Of a stretch of DNA of 64,000 bases, positions 2,600 to 62,715 are shown piece after piece. The position numbers and the translations under genes are program-made. Below the pieces are notes generated by a model. That model searched no databases. It saw only the letters and a program-made list of their open reading frames with translations, and had not been told where the DNA came from. Position 1 is the first letter of the stretch. Each line of letters opens with the position of its first letter. Source of the stretch: a bacterium (GTDB lineage: Bacteria; BMS3Abin14); contig JARGFZ010000002.1 of assembly GCA_029210965.1 (NCBI GenBank), positions 63,016-127,015 of the forward strand, in the 5' to 3' direction.

Positions 2600-2992
2600 A
2601 TGAATACAATGAAGTTCACAAGAAACTCATTGACGATGTTTGTTTTTCTATGGGTGCTGTCACCAGCGGCTGTTTCCTTTGCGGGGGAGGCGGATGTGGT
2701 GGGTGTAAAGGCAAGTTCCGGGAAAGATGGGACCTGGTCTTTCTCCGTCACGGTGAGGCATGACGACGAGGGATGGGATCATTACGCCGACCGGTGGGAG
2801 GTGCTGGGGCCTGATGGTGAGGTTCTCGGGACCCGGGTTCTCATGCACCCCCACGTTGGGGAGCAGCCCTTCACCAGAAGCCTGCGCGGAGTCAAGATCC
2901 CGAAGGGTGTCTCCAAGGTTGTGGTCCGTGCCCGGGACTCGGTCCACGAACATGGGGGTGAGGTGATGGAGGTTGAACTTCACCTGAAATAG
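2600..2992 (+). CDS. Small secreted hypothetical protein
   Basis: 130 aa with an N-terminal signal peptide (FVFLWVLSPAAVSFAGEA). I recognise no family. It is bracketed by heptamer arrays. Confidence 0.4.
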   Translation: MNTMKFTRNSLTMFVFLWVLSPAAVSFAGEADVVGVKASSGKDGTWSFSVTVRHDDEGWDHYADRWEVLGPDGEVLGTRVLMHPHVGEQPFTRSLRGVKIPKGVSKVVVRARDSVHEHGGEVMEVELHLK

Positions 2993-3025
2993 GTTGCCAT
3001 CTTGAAGGGTCTGTACAATTTTTTT

Positions 3026-3106
3026 CAGAACGCAGAACGCAGAACGCAGAACGCAGAACGCAGAACGCAGAACGCAGAACGCAGAACGCAGAACGCAGAA
3101 CGCAGA
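3026..3106. repeat. Tandem heptamer array (CAGAACG)n, about 11 copies
   Basis: Perfect 7-bp periodicity read directly. Spurious ORFs on both strands translate it as ...RSAFCVLRSAFCVL... Confidence 0.95.
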
Positions 3107-3153
3107 AGGGATAAGCAATGCTTTTGACAGCCGGACCGGGAGGGTGAACTGTT

Positions 3154-3205
3154 CGCCACGCGCCACGCGCCACGCGCCACGCGCCACGCTTCACGCTTTT
3201 CACGG
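3154..3205. repeat. Tandem heptamer array (CGCCACG)n, about 5 copies plus degenerate units
   Basis: cgccacg cgccacg cgccacg ... cttcacg read directly. Confidence 0.9.
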
Positions 3206-3270
3206 CACTTACTCCTTGACATTTTCACGGTCCAGGAGCATGTTTATAGGCTTTGCTATACAAATAACTT

Positions 3271-5100
3271 TTGAAAAGGGATGAAAACACAGTGCAGGAA
3301 AATACTCGTAACATCGCAATCATTGCCCACGTTGACCACGGTAAGACCACACTGGTGGATGCCATGCTCAAACAGTCAGGCGTCTTCAGGGAAAACGAAG
3401 TTGTCAACGAGCGCGTCATGGACTCCAACGACCTGGAACGGGAGAGGGGCATCACCATCCTCGCCAAGAACCTGAGCGTTCAATTTGAAGACATCAAGAT
3501 CAACATCGTCGACACCCCCGGACATGCGGATTTCGGGGGTGAGGTGGAACGGATCCTCACAATGGTGGATTCGGTCCTCCTCCTCGTGGACGCTGTGGAC
3601 GGTCCCATGCCTCAGACCCGTTTTGTCCTCAGGAAATCGCTGGAAATGGGGCTGCGCCCCATACTCATCGTCAACAAGGTTGACCGCCCGGCTGCCGACC
3701 CGCTCCAGGCCCAGAGCAGAGTGTTCGACCTTTTCTGCGATCTTGCCACGTCCGAGGATCAGCTGGACTTTCCCACACTGTTCACCAACGCCCGGCAGGG
3801 TACCGCTGTGCGGGACATGAGCGAGGAACCCCGGGACTTAAGACCCCTTTTTGAAACCATACGGGACAACATCCAGCCTCCTGAGGGAGATGCAAACGCT
3901 CCCTTCCAGATGCTGATCGCCCATATCGACTACAACGACTACCTCGGAAGGATCGCCACCGGCAAGGTGGCCAACGGCAGCGTTGCCGTTGGAGACAGTG
4001 TGGCCCTCATCAAGGGGGACGGAAGGGTAACCAAGGGTAGGGTCAGTCGTCTCCAGGCTCACGAGGGGCTTCGGCAGGTGGAGGTTAACACAGCTACTTG
4101 CGGCGATATAGTAACCATCGCCGGCCTGGAAAATGTGGAGATAGGCGAGACTGTCAGCGACCCCTCCCATCCCCAGGCCCTCCCCTATAGGGTCGTTGAC
4201 GAACCCACTCTGGCGCTGAACGTCATGGTCAGCACCAGCCCCTTCGCCGGTCGGGAGGGAAAGTACGTCACCTCCAGGAGCATTCGCGAGCGCCTGCACC
4301 GGGAGCTTCGCAACAACCTCTCCCTGCGGGTCGAAGATACTTCGAGCCCCGACACTTTTCGGGTGTCCGGCCGCGGGGAGCTGCACCTGGGGATCCTCCT
4401 TGAGAACATGAGGAGAGAGGGCTTCGAGATGGCTATTTCCAAGCCAGAGGTCATCTTCAAAGAGATCGACGGCGTTCGGATGGAGCCCATGGAATGTCTC
4501 GTGATCGACGTCCCCGTTGAGCATCAGGGAGCAGTCATGGCCAGCGTCGGGCCGCGCCGGGTGGAGCTGCTGTCAATGAACGCTGTCAACAACGAGGTCC
4601 GCCTGGAATTTTCCATACCAGCGAGGGGGCTCATCGGGCTGCGAGGAGAACTGCTCACCGAAACGCGGGGCACCGCGGTTTTGAACCATGTCTTTGACGG
4701 CTATGAACCGTACAAGGGAGATATGCCGGGCCGCAGGACCGGGGCCCTTGTGTCCATGGAGAACGGCTTCGTTACCGCCTATGCGCTGGAAATGCTTCAG
4801 GAGAGGGGAAAACTTTTCGTAGAACCGGGCACGGAGGTTTACGCGGGAATGGTGGTCGGAGAAAATGCGAAGGACAACGATCTGGATGTTAACCCGGTAC
4901 GCCTTAAGAAGCTGACCAACATGCGCTCTTCCTCGTCCGATTTCAGCGTCAAGCTGACACCTCCCACCGTCCTCACGCTGGAACAGGCCATGGAGTACAT
5001 TGGTGACGACGAGCTGGTGGAGATTACCCCCAATTCCATACGGTTACGCAAGAGGGTGCTCAACAAGAACTTCAGGACTAAAAAGAGCGCGGTGGTTTAA
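3271..5100 (+). CDS. typA: Translational GTPase TypA/BipA
   Basis: Has [17 protein letters not shown] (G1), DTPGHADF and NKVDR motifs. 609 aa is full BipA length. The listed start is TTG; an in-frame GTG at about 3292 with AAAGGG upstream is the more plausible start. Confidence 0.95.
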
Positions 5101-5221
5101 AAGCCTGGAAGAGTGAATAGTGAATAGGGAAGGTGGAATAAAGGCATCCCAGCCTTTTTCTTCCCCGTTCCCTATTCCAAATAGTTCCCTCGCGTTAAAA
5201 TCTTTCTCTACACGCTACACT

Positions 5222-5263
5222 CTCTTCGATTGAGCCGGGCCAGGCCCGAGATCAATCGAAGAG
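5222..5263. terminator. Long inverted repeat between convergent typA and the minus-strand gene (possible bidirectional terminator)
   Basis: ctcttcgattgagccgggcc a ggcccgagatcaatcgaagag is a near-perfect palindrome. It overlaps the last codons of the 5252..6307 gene and has no clear T-tract. Confidence 0.3.
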
Positions 5264-6307
5264 CAGGTTCGCGTCGATGAAAAAGCCGTTGGCCTTGAGG
5301 AGTTTCAGGAGGCCGATCTGCCACCCGCCTTCCTCCTTGTAGGGGATATAGCGTATTCCGAAGAGCCCCTCGGGGATATCCTGGGGTCGCTCACCGCTGT
5401 GCAGGATCACGACCTTTCCCGGACCGAGGCTACCCACCAGAAGACCAAGCTTAAAAGTGCTCTCATGTTTGGGGTAAGGTTTTCCGATCACCGAGGTGAG
5501 ACCGGAAAGGCCCCCCCTGGGTCCTGAGGATACCGACATGATGGTAAAGGCCATGTTCTTCTGCCCGATGATCCCCTCCATCTCGGAGGAGCTATCCTCA
5601 TCCAGAAGGGCAAGATCGATACCGATCTTCTCCAGCAGGGCCGCCACGGCCAAACTGATATCATCCCCCCCTTCCTGCAGCAGGAGTATCCGTCCCGGCT
5701 GTTTGGGGCTTACCTGGGGGGTTTTTTTGACAGTTTCCGCGGCCTTGGGAGCCGGCTTGGGTTCGGGTTCAGGTGCCGGTTTGGCCGCCCTGGCTGCCGA
5801 TGGCGCATCGGGTGCGTTGGGCCTGGTTCGGGGCACGGCCTTAGGCGGGGATGGCTTTGCCGGTGGGGTTTTTCCAGCAGGTTCGACCTCCACGAGATCC
5901 TCTGGGGACAGGTCCTGGATATCGTCCTCGGACAGATCTATGAGGCTGAGAAGCGCCTCCAGGCGCTGAGCCGCTTTTGGCAGCCCCAGTTCATATTTGG
6001 TCTGTTTTTCTGCCCGTGAATCACCCCTTGAAATATTTCCGGCGGCGATCTTGAACCCCTCGAACTCGCTGTACTCGGGTGACTCGCTCCCGAATACGTC
6101 GCACACTCCCTGGGCCACTCCGTCTTCAAGTGCCTGGATCTCGTCGCTGTCGAGAGGAACGATCCTGGGATTGATACTCTTCAGCTCACTGAGAATTGCA
6201 ATAAGTAGATCTTTACCCTGCTTCCCCGAGATCCCTGCCATAATATGCTCCCCTGTCGTTTCAATCAGTAGTTTGAGCCCCAGTGTATGTAGGTATTTTA
6301 CGCTCAA
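5252..6307 (-). CDS. Protein with C-terminal TIR-like (predicted nucleotide-binding, pfam10137-like) domain, a Pro/Ala-rich linker and an uncharacterised N-terminal domain
   Basis: C-terminal ...STFKLGLLVGSLGPGKVVILHSGERPQDIPEGLFGIRYIPYKEEGGWQIGLLKLLKANGFFID resembles the TIR-like ARQNVifElGyfiGkLGr...eiPSDl.Gv.y...d.W...La.EL.aaG consensus, recalled from memory. The linker is PAGKTPPAKPSPPKAVPRTRPNAPDAPSAARAAKPAPEPEPKPAPK. The true start is probably the internal MAGISGK near 6244. Confidence 0.5.
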   Translation of the reverse strand: MSVKYLHTLGLKLLIETTGEHIMAGISGKQGKDLLIAILSELKSINPRIVPLDSDEIQALEDGVAQGVCDVFGSESPEYSEFEGFKIAAGNISRGDSRAEKQTKYELGLPKAAQRLEALLSLIDLSEDDIQDLSPEDLVEVEPAGKTPPAKPSPPKAVPRTRPNAPDAPSAARAAKPAPEPEPKPAPKAAETVKKTPQVSPKQPGRILLLQEGGDDISLAVAALLEKIGIDLALLDEDSSSEMEGIIGQKNMAFTIMSVSSGPRGGLSGLTSVIGKPYPKHESTFKLGLLVGSLGPGKVVILHSGERPQDIPEGLFGIRYIPYKEEGGWQIGLLKLLKANGFFIDANLLFD

Positions 6308-6613
6308 GAAAATATTTTACACAAGGTCATTGTGTTGTAGGTTTGGCTTAGGAGCCAGGAGGAAATTAATTAAGAATTTGGAATTGAGCATTGAGGATTA
6401 ACATCAAAGGCCTCATTATTATAAATACTCAATTTTCAATGCTGCATCCGGAATCATATTTCCCAAACCTCAAACCTCAAACCCTTACCTTAATAATAAT
6501 AGGCCGTGTGCTGCAATCGTTCGGGTTTTGATCTTATTCTACGTTCTACATTCCACATTCTTCATTCTCACCAGACCCTAGACCCCAGACTCTAGACCCT
6601 ATACACTCCCCCC

Positions 6614-7225
6614 ATGTCTCCTTTCCTCTATTTTCTCATCTTCCCCCTGGTTGGAGCCCTCGTGGGTGGGTTCACCAACTGGCTGGCCATTCTCATGCTG
6701 TTTCGTCCCCGGGAACCGGTACGGATATTCTGGTGGTCCCTGCAGGGGGTTATCCCCAGCAGGCACGCTCAATTGGCTGAGCGTATTGCTGATACGGTGG
6801 AAAACAGCCTTCTGACTCAGGATGACATGGAAAAAGCCATGAGCGGTGTGAACTGGCACGATGAGGTAGACAGCCTCATACGAAAGGTCCTCCACGATCG
6901 GGGACCGGGCGGGATCCTAGAAAAGATCCCGGGCGTTTCACAGGCGTGGAATAGAATTATTTTTCCCTCTCTGCAGGAGGTTCTCAGCCGGGAGATAGTC
7001 CGGTTCATGGATGGACATGGTAAACGCTTTGCAGGCAAGCTGAGAGAATCGGTGGACATCAGGGAGATCGTCAGGATAAAGGTCATGGAGTTTGAGACCG
7101 AGGCCATGGAGGACCTTATCATGGCCGTTGCGAAAAAAGAGTTTGGTCACATCAAGATAGTGGGGGCCATCACCGGGGCGGCCATAGGTGTGGTGCAAGG
7201 AATAGTAATGTTAGTGGTGGGATGA
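6614..7225 (+). CDS. DUF445-family membrane protein
   Basis: N-terminal GxxTNWLAIxMLFRP motif, and C-terminal GAITGAAIGVVQG typical of DUF445. Confidence 0.7.
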   Translation: MSPFLYFLIFPLVGALVGGFTNWLAILMLFRPREPVRIFWWSLQGVIPSRHAQLAERIADTVENSLLTQDDMEKAMSGVNWHDEVDSLIRKVLHDRGPGGILEKIPGVSQAWNRIIFPSLQEVLSREIVRFMDGHGKRFAGKLRESVDIREIVRIKVMEFETEAMEDLIMAVAKKEFGHIKIVGAITGAAIGVVQGIVMLVVG

Positions 7226-8904: not shown

Positions 8905-8930
8905 GTGTTCTCCTTTACGCCTTTTTTTTT

Positions 8931-8957
8931 GAGATTTGAGATATGAGATTTGAGATC
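8931..8957. repeat. Tandem heptamer array (GAGATTT/GAGATAT)n
   Basis: gagattt gagatat gagattt gagatcc, between rph and murI. The same unit recurs at 62530..62557. Confidence 0.8.
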
Positions 8958-10461: not shown

Positions 10462-11750
10462 GGCCGTTCTCTCTTTATCTCACCCCGGAGAAGTCCCCTG
10501 TGATAATCCTCGATGGCCCGATAAAGCGCCGTGGCTATCTGCTTCTGATGGGCCTGGCGGTTCAGTCGGACCTCCTGCTCCGGGTTGGAGATATATCCGA
10601 TCTCTACCAAAGCCGCCGGCATCCTGGCACCCATGAGAACAGCCAGAGGAGCCTGCCGCACTCCTCTGTCCCGGCCCCTGAGTTCACCTATGATCCGTTT
10701 CTGAACCATGGATGCCAACTCGTTGCTCTCCTGGATATAACCAGTCTGGGCCATATCCCAGAGGATCGCCTCCAAAAGCGCTTTGTCGCCCTCATCCCCC
10801 TTGACCCCGAGAGCCTTATTTTCAATTTCGGCGTAGCTGCGGGCCTGCTTGTCAGTGGACTTAAGACTCAGGTAGTAAGTTTCATAACCCTCGATATCCC
10901 GGCGGAAGGTGGCGTTGGCGTGAATGCTCAGGAACAGGTCCGCGCGGTTGTTGTTGGCGATGGCCGTCCGTTCTTTAAGCCCTACATAGTAATCGGCTGT
11001 ACGAGTCAGGACGACCTTTATCCCGAGTCCTTCTTCCAGCCTGGTCTTGAGTATCTCCGTAACGGTGAGTACGAGGTCTTTTTCCCTTGTTCCAGTACTT
11101 CCCCTCGCTCCAAGGCTTCTACCCCCATGGCCTGGATCGAGAACTACAACCGAAAGCCCTTTCGGTTCCTTCTGGAGCACCTCTTCCGGAACATACTGGT
11201 CCCGACGGATGAAGGAGGCTGTTTTTGACAATTCCTCCGGGTTCTGACCCTGGAAACCCCCTGAACCCGGCTCTCCGAGTGTCAGTGCCCGGGAATCCAG
11301 TGAGGAAGAGCGTCCCGTGAGAGCAGGCAGCGCTTTGGTGAGAAAATCAGTGGGAATAGCCAGTCTGCCGCCCAGATTGACAAGGGGGCCCGACATGACA
11401 GAGAACAGTCCCCGTGACAGGACGAGGGGTGATTCCAACAGCAAACGGCAAGAACCCCGCTCACCAACCAGGTCCAACCTCTCCCCCAGGACATCCAGGC
11501 TCGAACGCAGATCGAAGACCTCAATGAGGGACTGCAGGTCGATCATCCCCGATCGTACGGTAAGCTGCCCGGCCTTGCCTCCCGGCAGGTGTACGGAGAT
11601 CTCCGATGTCAGGGAATAAGCCTTCATCGGCAAGGCGAGGGTTACCGAAAAAATGCAAACCAGGATAATTCGATTCAGGAGGTGTTGAAATAGGAAAGTC
11701 CTGCGTATCATATTCGAAACGGATGTGGAGTTAATAAACCGCTTCACCAT
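10458..11750 (-). CDS. N-acetylmuramoyl-L-alanine amidase (AmiC-like, amidase_3 with N-terminal AMIN-like region)
   Basis: VVLDPGHGG...DLFLSIHANA is the amidase_3 catalytic motif. Signal peptide present. Confidence 0.85.
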   Translation of the reverse strand: MVKRFINSTSVSNMIRRTFLFQHLLNRIILVCIFSVTLALPMKAYSLTSEISVHLPGGKAGQLTVRSGMIDLQSLIEVFDLRSSLDVLGERLDLVGERGSCRLLLESPLVLSRGLFSVMSGPLVNLGGRLAIPTDFLTKALPALTGRSSSLDSRALTLGEPGSGGFQGQNPEELSKTASFIRRDQYVPEEVLQKEPKGLSVVVLDPGHGGRSLGARGSTGTREKDLVLTVTEILKTRLEEGLGIKVVLTRTADYYVGLKERTAIANNNRADLFLSIHANATFRRDIEGYETYYLSLKSTDKQARSYAEIENKALGVKGDEGDKALLEAILWDMAQTGYIQESNELASMVQKRIIGELRGRDRGVRQAPLAVLMGARMPAALVEIGYISNPEQEVRLNRQAHQKQIATALYRAIEDYHRGLLRGEIKRERP

Positions 11751-11786
11751 TCACTGTTCACCTTTCACTATTCACCGTTTACAGCT

Positions 11787-35192: not shown

Positions 35193-35597
35193 CTCAGGCA
35201 ATGCCTCCCCTCGGCAAAATATCCCGGTCAAACACCTGTTAGCAGAAGATAAGTCGGTGGGCTTTCTTTATGATTGCCTACCGAACAACACAATATTTTA
35301 GAGGAATACAGAAATAAAATCCACCATCTAATAACGGATTTTTTTAAACGCAGAGTTCGCGAAGGACGCAGAGGAAGGCTCTAAACTTGGGAAAGCGCGG
35401 TTACTTTAATAGCAGAATGCAGAACGTAGAACGTAGAACGTAGAATTAAACTCGAACCCGAACCCGAATGTTCTGTCATTCCGGGCAAAGCGCAAGGGAT
35501 GACCCGGAATCCAGTATCTTAAAGTGATTAAAGCCTTAACGCAGGAGGAGATCAAAAGCATGTTGATTACAGTAATCAGCTGACAGACAATTTCTCT

Positions 35598-35677
35598 TGC
35601 ACCTTGCACCTTGCACCTTGCACCTTGCACCTTGCACCTTGCACCTTGCACCTTGCACCTTGCACCTTGCACCTTGG
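35598..35677. repeat. Tandem heptamer array (GCACCTT)n, about 11 copies
   Basis: Perfect 7-bp period read directly. It is preceded at about 35413..35470 by (CAGAACG/TAGAACG)n and (AACCCGA)n arrays. Confidence 0.95.
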
Positions 35678-46968: not shown

Positions 46969-48042
46969 ATGTATCTTGAGGGTGTGGGGTTTGACGATCG
47001 TTTTGCCCGGGATTTCGAATCACTGAAGTTTGAGGGAGTTGTACCGGGCCGGGTGATCTGGCAGAGTGCCTACAGTTACAGGGTGCAGTGTGAGGACGGG
47101 GAGATCGCCGCTGAACTCTCAGGGAAGCTCAAAGCCGGGGATCTTCCAGCAGTGGGCGACTGGGTGGCTGTACGCCCTGCAGCTGTGGATGAGATGGGCA
47201 CCATACTGGCCATCCTGCCGCGAAAAAGCGCCTTTTCGAGAAACACAGCAAGTAAAGGCGTGAATGAGCAGGTCGTAGCAGCCAACATAGACGAAGTGCT
47301 CATCGTCACGGACCTTGACCGGGATTTCAATCTGCGCCGAATCGAAAGGTATATCACCCTGGTCTATAACAGCGGAGCGAGCCCGGTGGTGGTGCTTAAC
47401 AAAACCGATCTCGCAACTGATGTGGAAGCGGTGTTTGCCCAAACCGAGGCGGTTTCTCCAGGAGTCCCCATCTTCGCGGTGAGCGCTGAGAAAAATCAGG
47501 GGATAGAGCAGCTGAAAAACCACATCGGTCAAGGCAAGACCGTGGCCTTTCTGGGCTCCTCGGGCGTCGGCAAATCAACCATCATAAACTGCCTTCTGGG
47601 CGAGGACCGCATGGAGGTGGGCGAAGTCAGGGAAGCGGACGGCAAGGGACGGCACACAACCACTCACCGTGAACTGGTCCGCCTCCCGGGGGGCGGCGCG
47701 GTCATCGATACTCCGGGGATGCGGGAGATCCAGGTCTGGGGTGATGAAGAAGGCCTGGTTGAGGCTTTCCCGGAAATAGAGGCCCTGACTGCCGCCTGCC
47801 GTTTCCGGGATTGCCGCCACGATTCGGAGAAGGGTTGCGCTGTACTGGAAGCGTTGGACTCTGGCCGCCTGGATAAGGGGCGCTTCGAAAGTTATATGAA
47901 GCTCAGGGGAGAATTTGAAAGCCTCGAGGTCAGAAAGAGCAAAAACGCCCGCCTGGAAGAGAGGCGTGAAGGGAAAAGGTTTGCCAAGATGGTACGTGAA
48001 GTAAAGCGTCATAATCCGAAGAGAAAAAACCGTGACTCGTGA
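46969..48042 (+). CDS. rsgA: Ribosome small-subunit-dependent GTPase A
   Basis: Circularly permuted GTPase: NKTDL before GSSGVGKST. C-terminal zinc finger CRFRDCRHDSEKGC. Confidence 0.9.
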   Translation: MYLEGVGFDDRFARDFESLKFEGVVPGRVIWQSAYSYRVQCEDGEIAAELSGKLKAGDLPAVGDWVAVRPAAVDEMGTILAILPRKSAFSRNTASKGVNEQVVAANIDEVLIVTDLDRDFNLRRIERYITLVYNSGASPVVVLNKTDLATDVEAVFAQTEAVSPGVPIFAVSAEKNQGIEQLKNHIGQGKTVAFLGSSGVGKSTIINCLLGEDRMEVGEVREADGKGRHTTTHRELVRLPGGGAVIDTPGMREIQVWGDEEGLVEAFPEIEALTAACRFRDCRHDSEKGCAVLEALDSGRLDKGRFESYMKLRGEFESLEVRKSKNARLEERREGKRFAKMVREVKRHNPKRKNRDS

Positions 48043-48084
48043 CTCGTGAACCGTGATCCGTGATCCGTGATCGGTGATCGGTAA
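48031..48084. repeat. Tandem heptamer array (CGTGAYC/GGTGATC)n, about 8 copies
   Basis: cgtgact cgtgact cgtgaac cgtgatc x3 ggtgatc x2. The first units overlap the last rsgA codons and its stop. Confidence 0.9.
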
Positions 48085-50653: not shown

Positions 50654-50658
50654 AATTC

Positions 50659-50695
50659 AGTAGCCAGTAGCCAGTAGCCAGTAGCCAGTAGCCAG
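50659..50695. repeat. Tandem heptamer array (AGTAGCC)5
   Basis: Read directly, immediately after the dfx stop. Confidence 0.9.
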
Positions 50696-51080: not shown

Positions 51081-51111
51081 CTGGGTACTGGGTACCGGGT
51101 ACTGGGTACCG
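51081..51111. repeat. Tandem heptamer array (CTGGGTA/CCGGGTA)n
   Basis: ctgggta ctgggta ccgggta ctgggta, just upstream of the RBS of the 4Fe-4S gene. Confidence 0.85.
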
Positions 51112-53656: not shown

Positions 53657-53692
53657 GGAAGATGATTAAATAGAGAAAGTGGCAAGAGATCA

Positions 53693-53717
53693 GGGATAAG
53701 GGATAAGGGATAAGAGA
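53693..53717. repeat. Tandem heptamer array (GGGATAA)3-4
   Basis: Read directly. Confidence 0.85.
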
Positions 53718-54189: not shown

Positions 54190-54946
54190 AAAGCAGAACC
54201 CAGTAGCCAGGATCCAGTAGCCAGTAGGGCAAACCGCCTGACACGGAGACACGGTGACGCGGAGACACGGGGTTAAAACTGGTGGTCGGTGATCGGTAAA
54301 GCCGAACCCGAATTCGAACCCGGGAGCGATCTTAGGCAAAAGCTTTTGACATGGATGAAGGGGATAGATGGGATGATTGGTGAAACCCTGAAATCCCCTC
54401 TTGTCATTGCGAGCGAAGCGCGGCAATCCCGGTTTACATAAAGACGGTGTTTTCCACTACCGTGAATGTTGGTTTGTTTTTGCTAGTCACGAGCTACTAG
54501 CCACAAGATCTCTTTTGAATCTTGAATTGCCCTTTCGCTCAGTCGCCAAGTCGCCTAGTCGGAAAGTCGGTTGTTAATGACCCTTATCTTCCATCTCTAT
54601 CTAATCGCTCCTCTTGTCCTGGTAGTTTTCATATACCGTTCGGGTAAGCGATCCTGGTAAACCCTCGTAACCGTTCCGGTAGCCTTCTATTCCCTCCCCG
54701 TACTTGTTGTGATCGGATTCTACCTTCTGCGCACTCCCATACAGCAGGGGAGATTCCTGGCAGAGTTCGGCCCGATCTTGAGCCTGGTCTTTCCTCCGGA
54801 AGATCTTTATGTCCCCTTGGCTTCTGTGGCTCTCGGACCGGTCAAGAAAGAATACAGCGCTGATTTTATTCATAAATATGTTGGCTATCATGCGGTGGAG
54901 ATATCCATACCCGGTAAGTCGAAAATGAGATGCCGGGCTCAAAGCT

Positions 54947-62363: not shown

Positions 62364-62715
62364 ACTCCAGTCCAACGGCTAATGTCCAAAGTCTAAAGTG
62401 GAACGCGTGCCGCTTGTCATTGCGAGCCGAATCCTGAGCGACTTGTCACGGCGAAACTGGAACCTGGAACACCAACCGAAGGTTGGCGTCATCGCGAGCC
62501 GATACCATGCGAAGCGATCTCGGGTTTTTGAGATTTGAGGTCTGAGATTTGAGATTCGCCCTTTTTACAGGGATGAAGGGGATGAAAGGGATTTGGAAAA
62601 ACAGGTTCTATGTCAATAAATCTGGTTACCTACGTTCTGACCACACCTGACACAAAAGGATCTTCATCTGAAGATGAGGGTCCCTAATATAACTTGTACC
62701 GCTAATGCTGTTTTC

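Follow-up and report, generated by a model that had tools for sequence, protein, structure and literature searches.

A TIR-like protein with an apparently rewritten NADase site at a housekeeping locus of uncultured bacteria

The gene described here lies on the minus strand of a 64,000-nucleotide stretch of DNA (the window) from an uncultured bacterium (assembly GCA_029210965.1, contig JARGFZ010000002.1, positions 63,016 to 127,015). It encodes a TIR-like protein, and domains of this type are usually read as immune effectors that consume nicotinamide adenine dinucleotide (NAD+). Because the catalytic glutamate and other active-site residues have been exchanged, and because the gene holds a conserved position among housekeeping genes, the protein is probably not an NAD+-destroying immune effector. 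In the open reading frame (ORF) listing of the window the gene appears as a minus-strand ORF of 351 aa at 5252-6307, beginning with TTG at 6307. This ORF was confirmed, but its start was not: the TTG adds 22 codons which are found in none of the homologues, whereas all 71 homologues begin with MAG(I/L)SGK, corresponding to an ATG at 6241. A Shine-Dalgarno-like GGGGAG (6248-6253, minus strand) precedes this ATG with a 6-nt spacer. From the common start of the homologues and the GGGGAG, the coding sequence was assigned to 5252-6241 (minus strand), which comprises 329 aa and a stop codon at 5252-5254. The product matches the NCBI entry 'hypothetical protein P1S59_01710 [bacterium]' at 100% identity over 329 aa; the entry comes from an uncultured metagenome-assembled genome (MAG). 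Its 71 close homologues share 44-90% identity, are intact, and have many invariant residues.

The gene product is best explained as a cytoplasmic protein of two domains, in which a flexible linker joins a four-helix bundle to a TIR-like domain. AlphaFold2 was run on an alignment of 37 sequences and gave a model with a mean predicted local distance difference test (pLDDT) score of 72.8. The N-terminal four-helix bundle spans residues 1-108 (5918-6241, minus strand) at a pLDDT of ~90, and the C-terminal domain, a flavodoxin-fold α/β domain related to PF10137, spans residues 181-329 (5255-5701, minus strand). The two are separated by a disordered Pro/Ala/Lys-rich linker at residues ~109-180 (5702-5917, minus strand), with pLDDT below 50 over residues ~110-177. 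In homologues the linker is 51-111 aa long and mildly basic, and the N-terminal domain is strongly acidic, with a median net charge of -9 across the clade. The original prediction had described an orphan protein of three parts; the three parts are recovered in the model, but with 71 homologues, and an N-terminal domain present in 172 cluster representatives, the protein is no orphan. No hydrophobic N-terminus or transmembrane segment is visible in the protein sequence or in the secondary structure of the model. This bears on the JGI naming of two homologues, P0064 and P0067, as 'cell division septation protein DedD', which, together with weak TonB and SucB matches over the linker, would suggest a protein of the DedD/TonB type acting in the envelope or in cell division. 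Such an identity is extremely improbable and was ruled out, as these matches are confined to the low-complexity Pro/Ala/Lys linker and neither a SPOR nor a TonB_C domain was found with Pfam.

Assignment of the C-terminal domain as TIR-like rests on profile evidence, since the single protein falls below the Pfam threshold: it scores 11.6 bits against PF10137 (E 0.28), where the gathering score is 24.7. Searched as a single sequence against Pfam, NCBIfam, and the PDB, it gave sub-threshold or low-complexity matches only. A word-indexed search for homologues that used the C-domain profile yielded just seven fragments and added nothing. At the level of the clade, PF10137 was matched at E≤0.1 by 34 of the 37 members, the best at 2.6e-6. 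The window protein is also matched, over the C-terminal domain only, by PADLOC models of the single-gene candidate system PDC-S35 (PDLC05005, E 2.1e-14; PDLC05007, E 1.4e-11). Moreover, the clade profile matches two Cap12 TIR-STING proteins of solved structure, 7un8 (E 0.0065) and 9lmq, in their TIR domains, and a Foldseek search of the PDB places TIR-STING on top (E 3.8e-5). When the clade alignment was compared by hhalign with 18 canonical relatives, a probability of 100% (E 3.1e-42) was obtained over 263 columns covering both domains. The TIR/flavodoxin-like α/β fold is therefore present, as the original prediction had proposed, and judged from these sequence profiles the descent shared with bona fide PF10137 domains can be regarded as secure. 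Response_reg (PF00072) gave no match at E≤1, and the likeness to receiver domains is at the level of fold only.

The region of the active site was then read against proteins that keep it. In the TIR-STING of Sphingobacterium faecium (SfSTING), E84 carries out catalysis, and the phosphodiester and ribose of NAD+ are held in place by R78 and N80 (PMC9402430). A hidden Markov model alignment places the SfSTING segment R-D-N-V-V-F-E-F-G opposite K258-H259-E260-S-T-F-K264-L-G266 of the window protein, which pairs R78 with K258, N80 with E260, and E84 with K264. A MAFFT alignment of the C-terminal domain was made from 24 canonical proteins with the N-terminal domain and PF10137 (aligned over the whole domain), three proteins of a sister clade, and seven members of the window clade. 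The catalytic Glu (x-E-x-G) and the βA His are kept in all 24 canonical and all three sister-clade proteins, and the canonical proteins additionally keep VHG, DD, RxRQN, and PSD. At these positions the window clade has Q/S189 (for HG), S/G239-240 (for DD), K/N/R258-H259-E260 (for R-x-RQN), and P290-E291-x (for PSD), an assignment with which hhalign agrees. The conserved catalytic Glu that the original prediction had asked to be looked for is Lys264 in 37/37 clade members. The remodelled αC motif K258-H259-E260-S-T-F-K264-L-G266 (5444-5470, minus strand; K264 codon at 5450-5452) takes the place of R-Q-N-V-I-F-E-L-G, as seen in the SfSTING, canonical, and hhalign alignments alike.

A second clade-specific feature is a Gly/Ser-rich loop, G243-G-L-S-G-L-T-S-V-I-G-K-P-Y256 (5474-5515, minus strand), which follows the lost DD position and stands out in residue counts and in the comparison with canonical proteins. 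Its core G-G-L-S-G-L-T-x-V-I is almost invariant in the clade, with G244, S246, L248, and I252 invariant. Conservation is likewise high at H259 (34/37), E260 (35/37), and E291 (35/37). As read from the alignments, then, each canonical PF10137 active-site motif is replaced in the window clade, and since the new residues vary little or not at all within the clade, the active site appears to have been rewritten rather than relaxed. We infer that hydrolysis of NAD+ by the TIR mechanism has been lost in the window protein. In the mechanism proposed here, the NADase site of a PF10137 domain would have been rewritten in one clade of uncultured bacteria, with Glu becoming an invariant Lys.

The time of this change is suggested by the sister clade (P0078, P0079, and P0080), whose members come from uncultured bacteria and are annotated 'predicted nucleotide-binding protein containing TIR-like domain'. 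Like the window clade they have a long Pro/Lys-rich linker, a 'DANxLFE' C-terminal tail, and a similar GL(P/S)GL loop. Unlike the window clade they keep the FELG Glu, the βA His, DD/DE, and RQD or RPA, and they pass the PF10137 threshold (E 1e-9 to 1e-15), which the window protein does not. In a neighbor-joining tree of 311 columns with 50 bootstraps, the Lys clade was monophyletic in 50/50 replicates. A long-linker clade formed by the Lys clade and the three Glu-retaining proteins was also monophyletic in 50/50, and next to it in the tree are the canonical proteins with short linkers. Read most simply, Glu was exchanged for Lys in one remodelling event, later than the gain of the long linker.

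Selection was estimated as the Nei-Gojobori ratio of nonsynonymous to synonymous substitution rates (dN/dS) for the window gene compared with its orthologues at loci L005 and L006, the N-domain range being taken from unsaturated close pairs. The ratios were 0.04-0.13 for the C-terminal domain, 0.09-0.15 for the N-terminal domain, and 0.47 for the linker; purifying selection on the two folded domains is thus strong. With the catalytic motifs lost and the protein below the Pfam threshold, the gene might be taken for a defence gene in decay or already a pseudogene, or for a spurious ORF. This was ruled out by dN/dS values far below 1 in both domains, and it is made all the more negligible as an explanation by the 71 intact homologues, the confident AlphaFold2 models of the domains, and the Shine-Dalgarno sequence. 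The same constraint, highest in the C-terminal domain, would also suit a new enzymatic activity, in which the Lys/His/Glu/Lys pocket and the loop act on a nucleotide or other phosphorylated substrate in normal physiology. The positions fixed in the clade carry reactive residues (K264, H259, E260, and E291), and the GGLSGLT loop is reminiscent of phosphate-binding loops. Nevertheless, library searches matched the window protein to no enzyme family other than PF10137, no conserved operon partner hints at a pathway, and model confidence is low over residues 241-257, which include the loop. New chemistry is therefore considered unlikely.

The N-terminal domain was not recognizable to the original prediction, and Pfam indeed holds no model for it. 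A profile of residues 1-112 was used in an exhaustive search of 1.84 billion cluster representatives (E≤1e-3), and 172 matching proteins were found, mostly with the domain at the N-terminus of proteins of 160-400 aa. The domain corresponds to about positions 7-103 of PADLOC model PDLC05005, of which it forms the N-terminal module; this link to PDC-S35 is detectable only with profiles. Among 140 N-domain bearers, the C-terminal partners were PF10137 (34 proteins), Hypoth_Ymh/HEPN (21), TIR_2 (5), DpnII-MboI restriction endonuclease (3), GGDEF (2), and SEFIR, CHAT, PLDc_2, protein kinase, and others (1 each). The bearers match the PADLOC models PDC-S35, PD-Lambda-3_B, SpbK, ThsB, bSEFIR, and PD-T4-6. 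Based on this range of fusion partners, the N-domain is a promiscuous N-terminal module of effector proteins. Promiscuous fusion of this kind is typical of sensor and adaptor domains in conflict systems, and by analogy the N-domain may be a sensor or adaptor module. What the original prediction called a novel sensor domain is thus new to Pfam but not unique to this protein, being a module of PDC-S35-type proteins and of many effector fusions.

The module is an undescribed domain common to several PADLOC candidate families, and a literature search found no description of it or of the family of the window protein. A widespread four-helix module which Pfam lacks, fused to at least 10 effector-type domains, would be a candidate for a sensor or adaptor domain that single-gene defence proteins have in common. 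Individual bearers illustrate its range. P0088 joins the module to a region resembling a PD-(D/E)xK nuclease, P0091 to a Hypoth_Ymh/HEPN-like region with an RNxxxH motif, P0093 to a transmembrane-containing region, and P0086, which matches PDC-S66, to a ThsB-like TIR_2 domain. In several very long proteins, for example P0084 (1721 aa) and P0221 (2480 aa), the module is repeated 3-7 times and Pfam domains are almost absent. Other multi-copy proteins are P0108, P0109, P0110, P0168, P0174, and P0206, and P0095 (548 aa) contains two near-identical copies.

PDC-S35 (models PDLC05003-05007) is among the closest described systems. The PDC candidates, which are untested, were chosen because they lie embedded ('guilt-by-embedding') within BREX, DISARM, and type I restriction-modification loci (bioRxiv 10.1101/2024.01.29.577857). 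The canonical PDC-S35 examples P0082 and P0089, both 289 aa, match PDLC05005 from end to end (E ~1e-80). As in the window protein, an N-terminal four-helix bundle is followed by a PF10137 TIR-like domain in one polypeptide, and the homology is full-length. Common features include the N-domain FG-x-x-S, a (V/I)DxN C-terminal tail, and GxW. The differences lie in the linker, which is ~20-30 aa in canonical PDC-S35 and 51-111 aa of Pro/Ala/Lys in the window clade, and in the motifs HG, DD, R-x-RQN, E, and PSD, which are invariant in the former and all replaced in the latter. The loci also differ. At two canonical loci, too few to generalize from, an overlapping AAA_22-like gene (L015) and nearby serine recombinases (L016) were found, whereas the window clade is surrounded by syntenic housekeeping genes. 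At L015 (4239-6502) the P0082 gene overlaps by 1 base with a downstream gene of 464 aa that has a faint AAA_22 match; from this overlap, some 'single-gene' PDC-S35 loci may be two-gene systems.

In the window the gene stands alone, convergent with typA/bipA (3271-5100) and divergent from a DUF445 gene (6614-7225), as the original prediction had described; rdgB, rph, and murI lie beyond. At all eight distinct clade loci the gene is placed by itself among housekeeping genes. No defence genes were found at these eight loci, where synteny is partly conserved, and the embedding by which PDC-S35 was nominated is not seen there. When a single genome per GTDB species was surveyed, the Lys clade turned up in five genomes only, namely JALHUC01, CP070698.1, CBFDCL01, JAFGWO01, and CP070682.1, all of them uncultured MAGs, two of which are closed chromosomes of 2.0-2.2 Mb. 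A scan of IMG/VR viral contigs found no relative. Taken together, the gene does not appear to be a mobile defence gene in the window lineage.

The original prediction had proposed a NAD+-consuming, stand-alone defence effector. As a rival reading, this would be an active abortive-infection or defence protein which oligomerizes once its bundle senses a phage cue, and whose TIR-like domain degrades NAD+ or makes a signal with E260, or E291 of a neighbouring subunit, as the catalytic acid. Several observations favour such an effector: the protein is homologous to PDC-S35 candidates, and its N-domain is fused elsewhere to domains often seen in defence proteins, namely TIR_2, HEPN (Hypoth_Ymh), restriction endonuclease, SEFIR, CHAT, and PLD. 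In addition, E260 and E291 hardly vary and are close to the pocket in sequence, and the gene is monocistronic like single-gene systems. However, every clade member has Lys, of opposite charge, in place of the Glu, and four more motifs are lost. The neighbourhood is a conserved housekeeping one with no defence genes nearby, the gene is limited to a narrow lineage in which it is monophyletic, consistent with vertical descent, viral contigs hold no relative, and PDC-S35 is itself only a candidate. An active effector is thus distinctly unlikely. The observations by which the original prediction proposed to be judged, absence of the glutamate and a housekeeping setting, are essentially those made here. 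It had placed the protein in the right superfamily, but the function it assigned belongs to a wider family that looks defence-like and was given to a derived clade that lost the chemistry.

On balance, it is reasonably probable that the protein descends vertically from a defence-type TIR-like protein, has been remodelled, and now serves as a non-NADase binding or regulatory module or as a scaffold. The loss of NADase activity and the domestication are much better supported than the positive function. The remodelled pocket (K258/H259/E260/K264/E291 with the GGLSGLT loop) would bind a ligand or partner, and the C-terminal domain would most likely be a ligand- or partner-binding regulator, or else a scaffold. 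The N-terminal bundle may retain an ancestral sensing or oligomerization role, with the long linker decoupling it from the TIR-like domain. Some points weigh against this account. E260 is nearly invariant and lies one helical turn before K264, and from this a relocated catalytic acid is conceivable. The grouping of the substituted residues in a single pocket is assumed from homology, the wider family and the fusion partners of the N-domain look defence-like, and stand-alone defence genes exist outside defence islands.

More tentatively, a PDC-S35-like immune effector may have been domesticated in one lineage, becoming a fixed chromosomal gene and keeping its four-helix module. Its NADase residues would have given way to a Lys/His/Glu/Lys pocket of equal conservation with the Gly/Ser-rich loop, and with them it would have gained a function outside immunity, either the sensing of nucleotides or metabolites or a new chemistry. 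This possibility overlaps with the new enzymatic activity considered above. If true, the domestication would mirror, in prokaryotes, the passage of animal TIR domains from enzymes to adaptors. Since TIR-like domains are usually taken for immune effectors, PADLOC-type pipelines would flag the gene as a defence candidate. The window clade would be a counter-example, having the same architecture and purifying selection but replaced catalytic motifs and a housekeeping locus, and it calls for caution in the automated annotation of defence systems. The Glu clade and the Lys clade also offer a natural pair for studying how immune enzymes are repurposed.

Other TIR systems resemble the window protein in part. 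Cap12 TIR-STING (S. faecium 7un8/7una, also 9lmq) and Pycsar PycTIR are PF10137 TIR NADases. Cap12 has the same fold as the C-terminal domain, with the αC-βD-βE region aligned, and the PADLOC TIR-effector and PycTIR models give weak matches to the window protein. Unlike Cap12, the window protein has no STING, SAVED, or cNMP-binding domain detectable with Pfam, and no CD-NTase or pyrimidine cyclase gene lies beside it in the window. Thoeris pairs a ThsB-type TIR protein with an adjacent ThsA; the window protein matches neither TIR_2 nor ThsB, no ThsA-like neighbour is present in the window, and no second paralogue that might act as a partner was found there. Among the structural matches were also non-catalytic scaffolds or binding modules with a flavodoxin-like fold, namely the TIR adaptors MyD88, TRIF, TIRAP, and SIGIRR, which belong to eukaryotic signalling, and the pseudo-receiver of CikA (CikA PsR), a component of the cyanobacterial clock. 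These are analogies only, with no detectable sequence relationship to the window protein.

Microsynteny of the clade loci was compared by tblastn. MTHFR and a flanking gene for a ~120-aa hypothetical protein are found at L002, L004, L007, and L008, and L005 keeps the hypothetical only. Downstream, a small hypothetical and a phospholipase A1 (PLA1) gene are found at L002, L004, L006, and L008 and in the window, and L007 has small hypotheticals without PLA1. The pair is directly downstream of the gene in L004 and L006, whereas in the window typA (3271-5100) stands between, which indicates a local rearrangement or insertion. In the window the PLA1 homologue lies at 1644-2540 and the homologue of a ~139-aa hypothetical at 2594-2980, both on the plus strand. 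The gene of the Glu-retaining P0078 (sister-clade locus L010), which is carried by GCA_041556335.1 among other genomes, adjoins MTHFR, the ~120-aa hypothetical, SnoaL_3, and Zn_ribbon_8. Because P0078 has the same neighbours, the Lys and sister clades occupy a shared, rearranged neighbourhood, consistent with orthology.

At L001/L009 (8001-8909), on the closed MAG chromosome CP070682.1, the copy of the gene is annotated as partial, with 303 aa ending in GGWQIVL. Our own translation gives ~340 aa with a different C-terminus, which points to the last helix being affected by a frameshift or by a mistake in the long-read assembly.

The intergenic region upstream of the gene has a GC content of 0.40, compared with 0.54 for the whole window, and contains period-7 arrays at 6464-6483, 6536-6568, and 6573-6601 (Tandem Repeats Finder). 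An AT-rich promoter region with heptamer arrays had been predicted, and both the low GC and the arrays are present. Their specificity for the promoter did not hold: heptamer arrays with differing units occur in intergenic regions throughout the window, and they are thus a genome-wide feature, so that a promoter-specific heptamer element was ruled out. The sole sigma-70-like match upstream, TTGAGG-16-TATGAT (6453-6480, minus strand), is at chance level, with one found against 0.8 expected. An Rfam search of the window gave no match.

Across the window, period-7 arrays were located at 2545-2595, 3026-3107, 3154-3189, 5108-5131, 6464-6601, 8928-8956, 11738-11779, 35421-35445, 35596-35676, 48030-48079, 50658-50695, 51081-51109, 53684-53714, 54200-54227, and 62527-62556. 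Minus-strand ORFs with 'CVLRSAF' repeats (2660-3228) are the translated array at 3026-3107, and the real gene in this region appears to be on the plus strand at ~2594-2980. Examples of the units are CAGAACG (x11.7) and CTTGCAC (x11.6), each 100% matched, and the arrays of the window resemble the STRR heptamer repeats of cyanobacteria.

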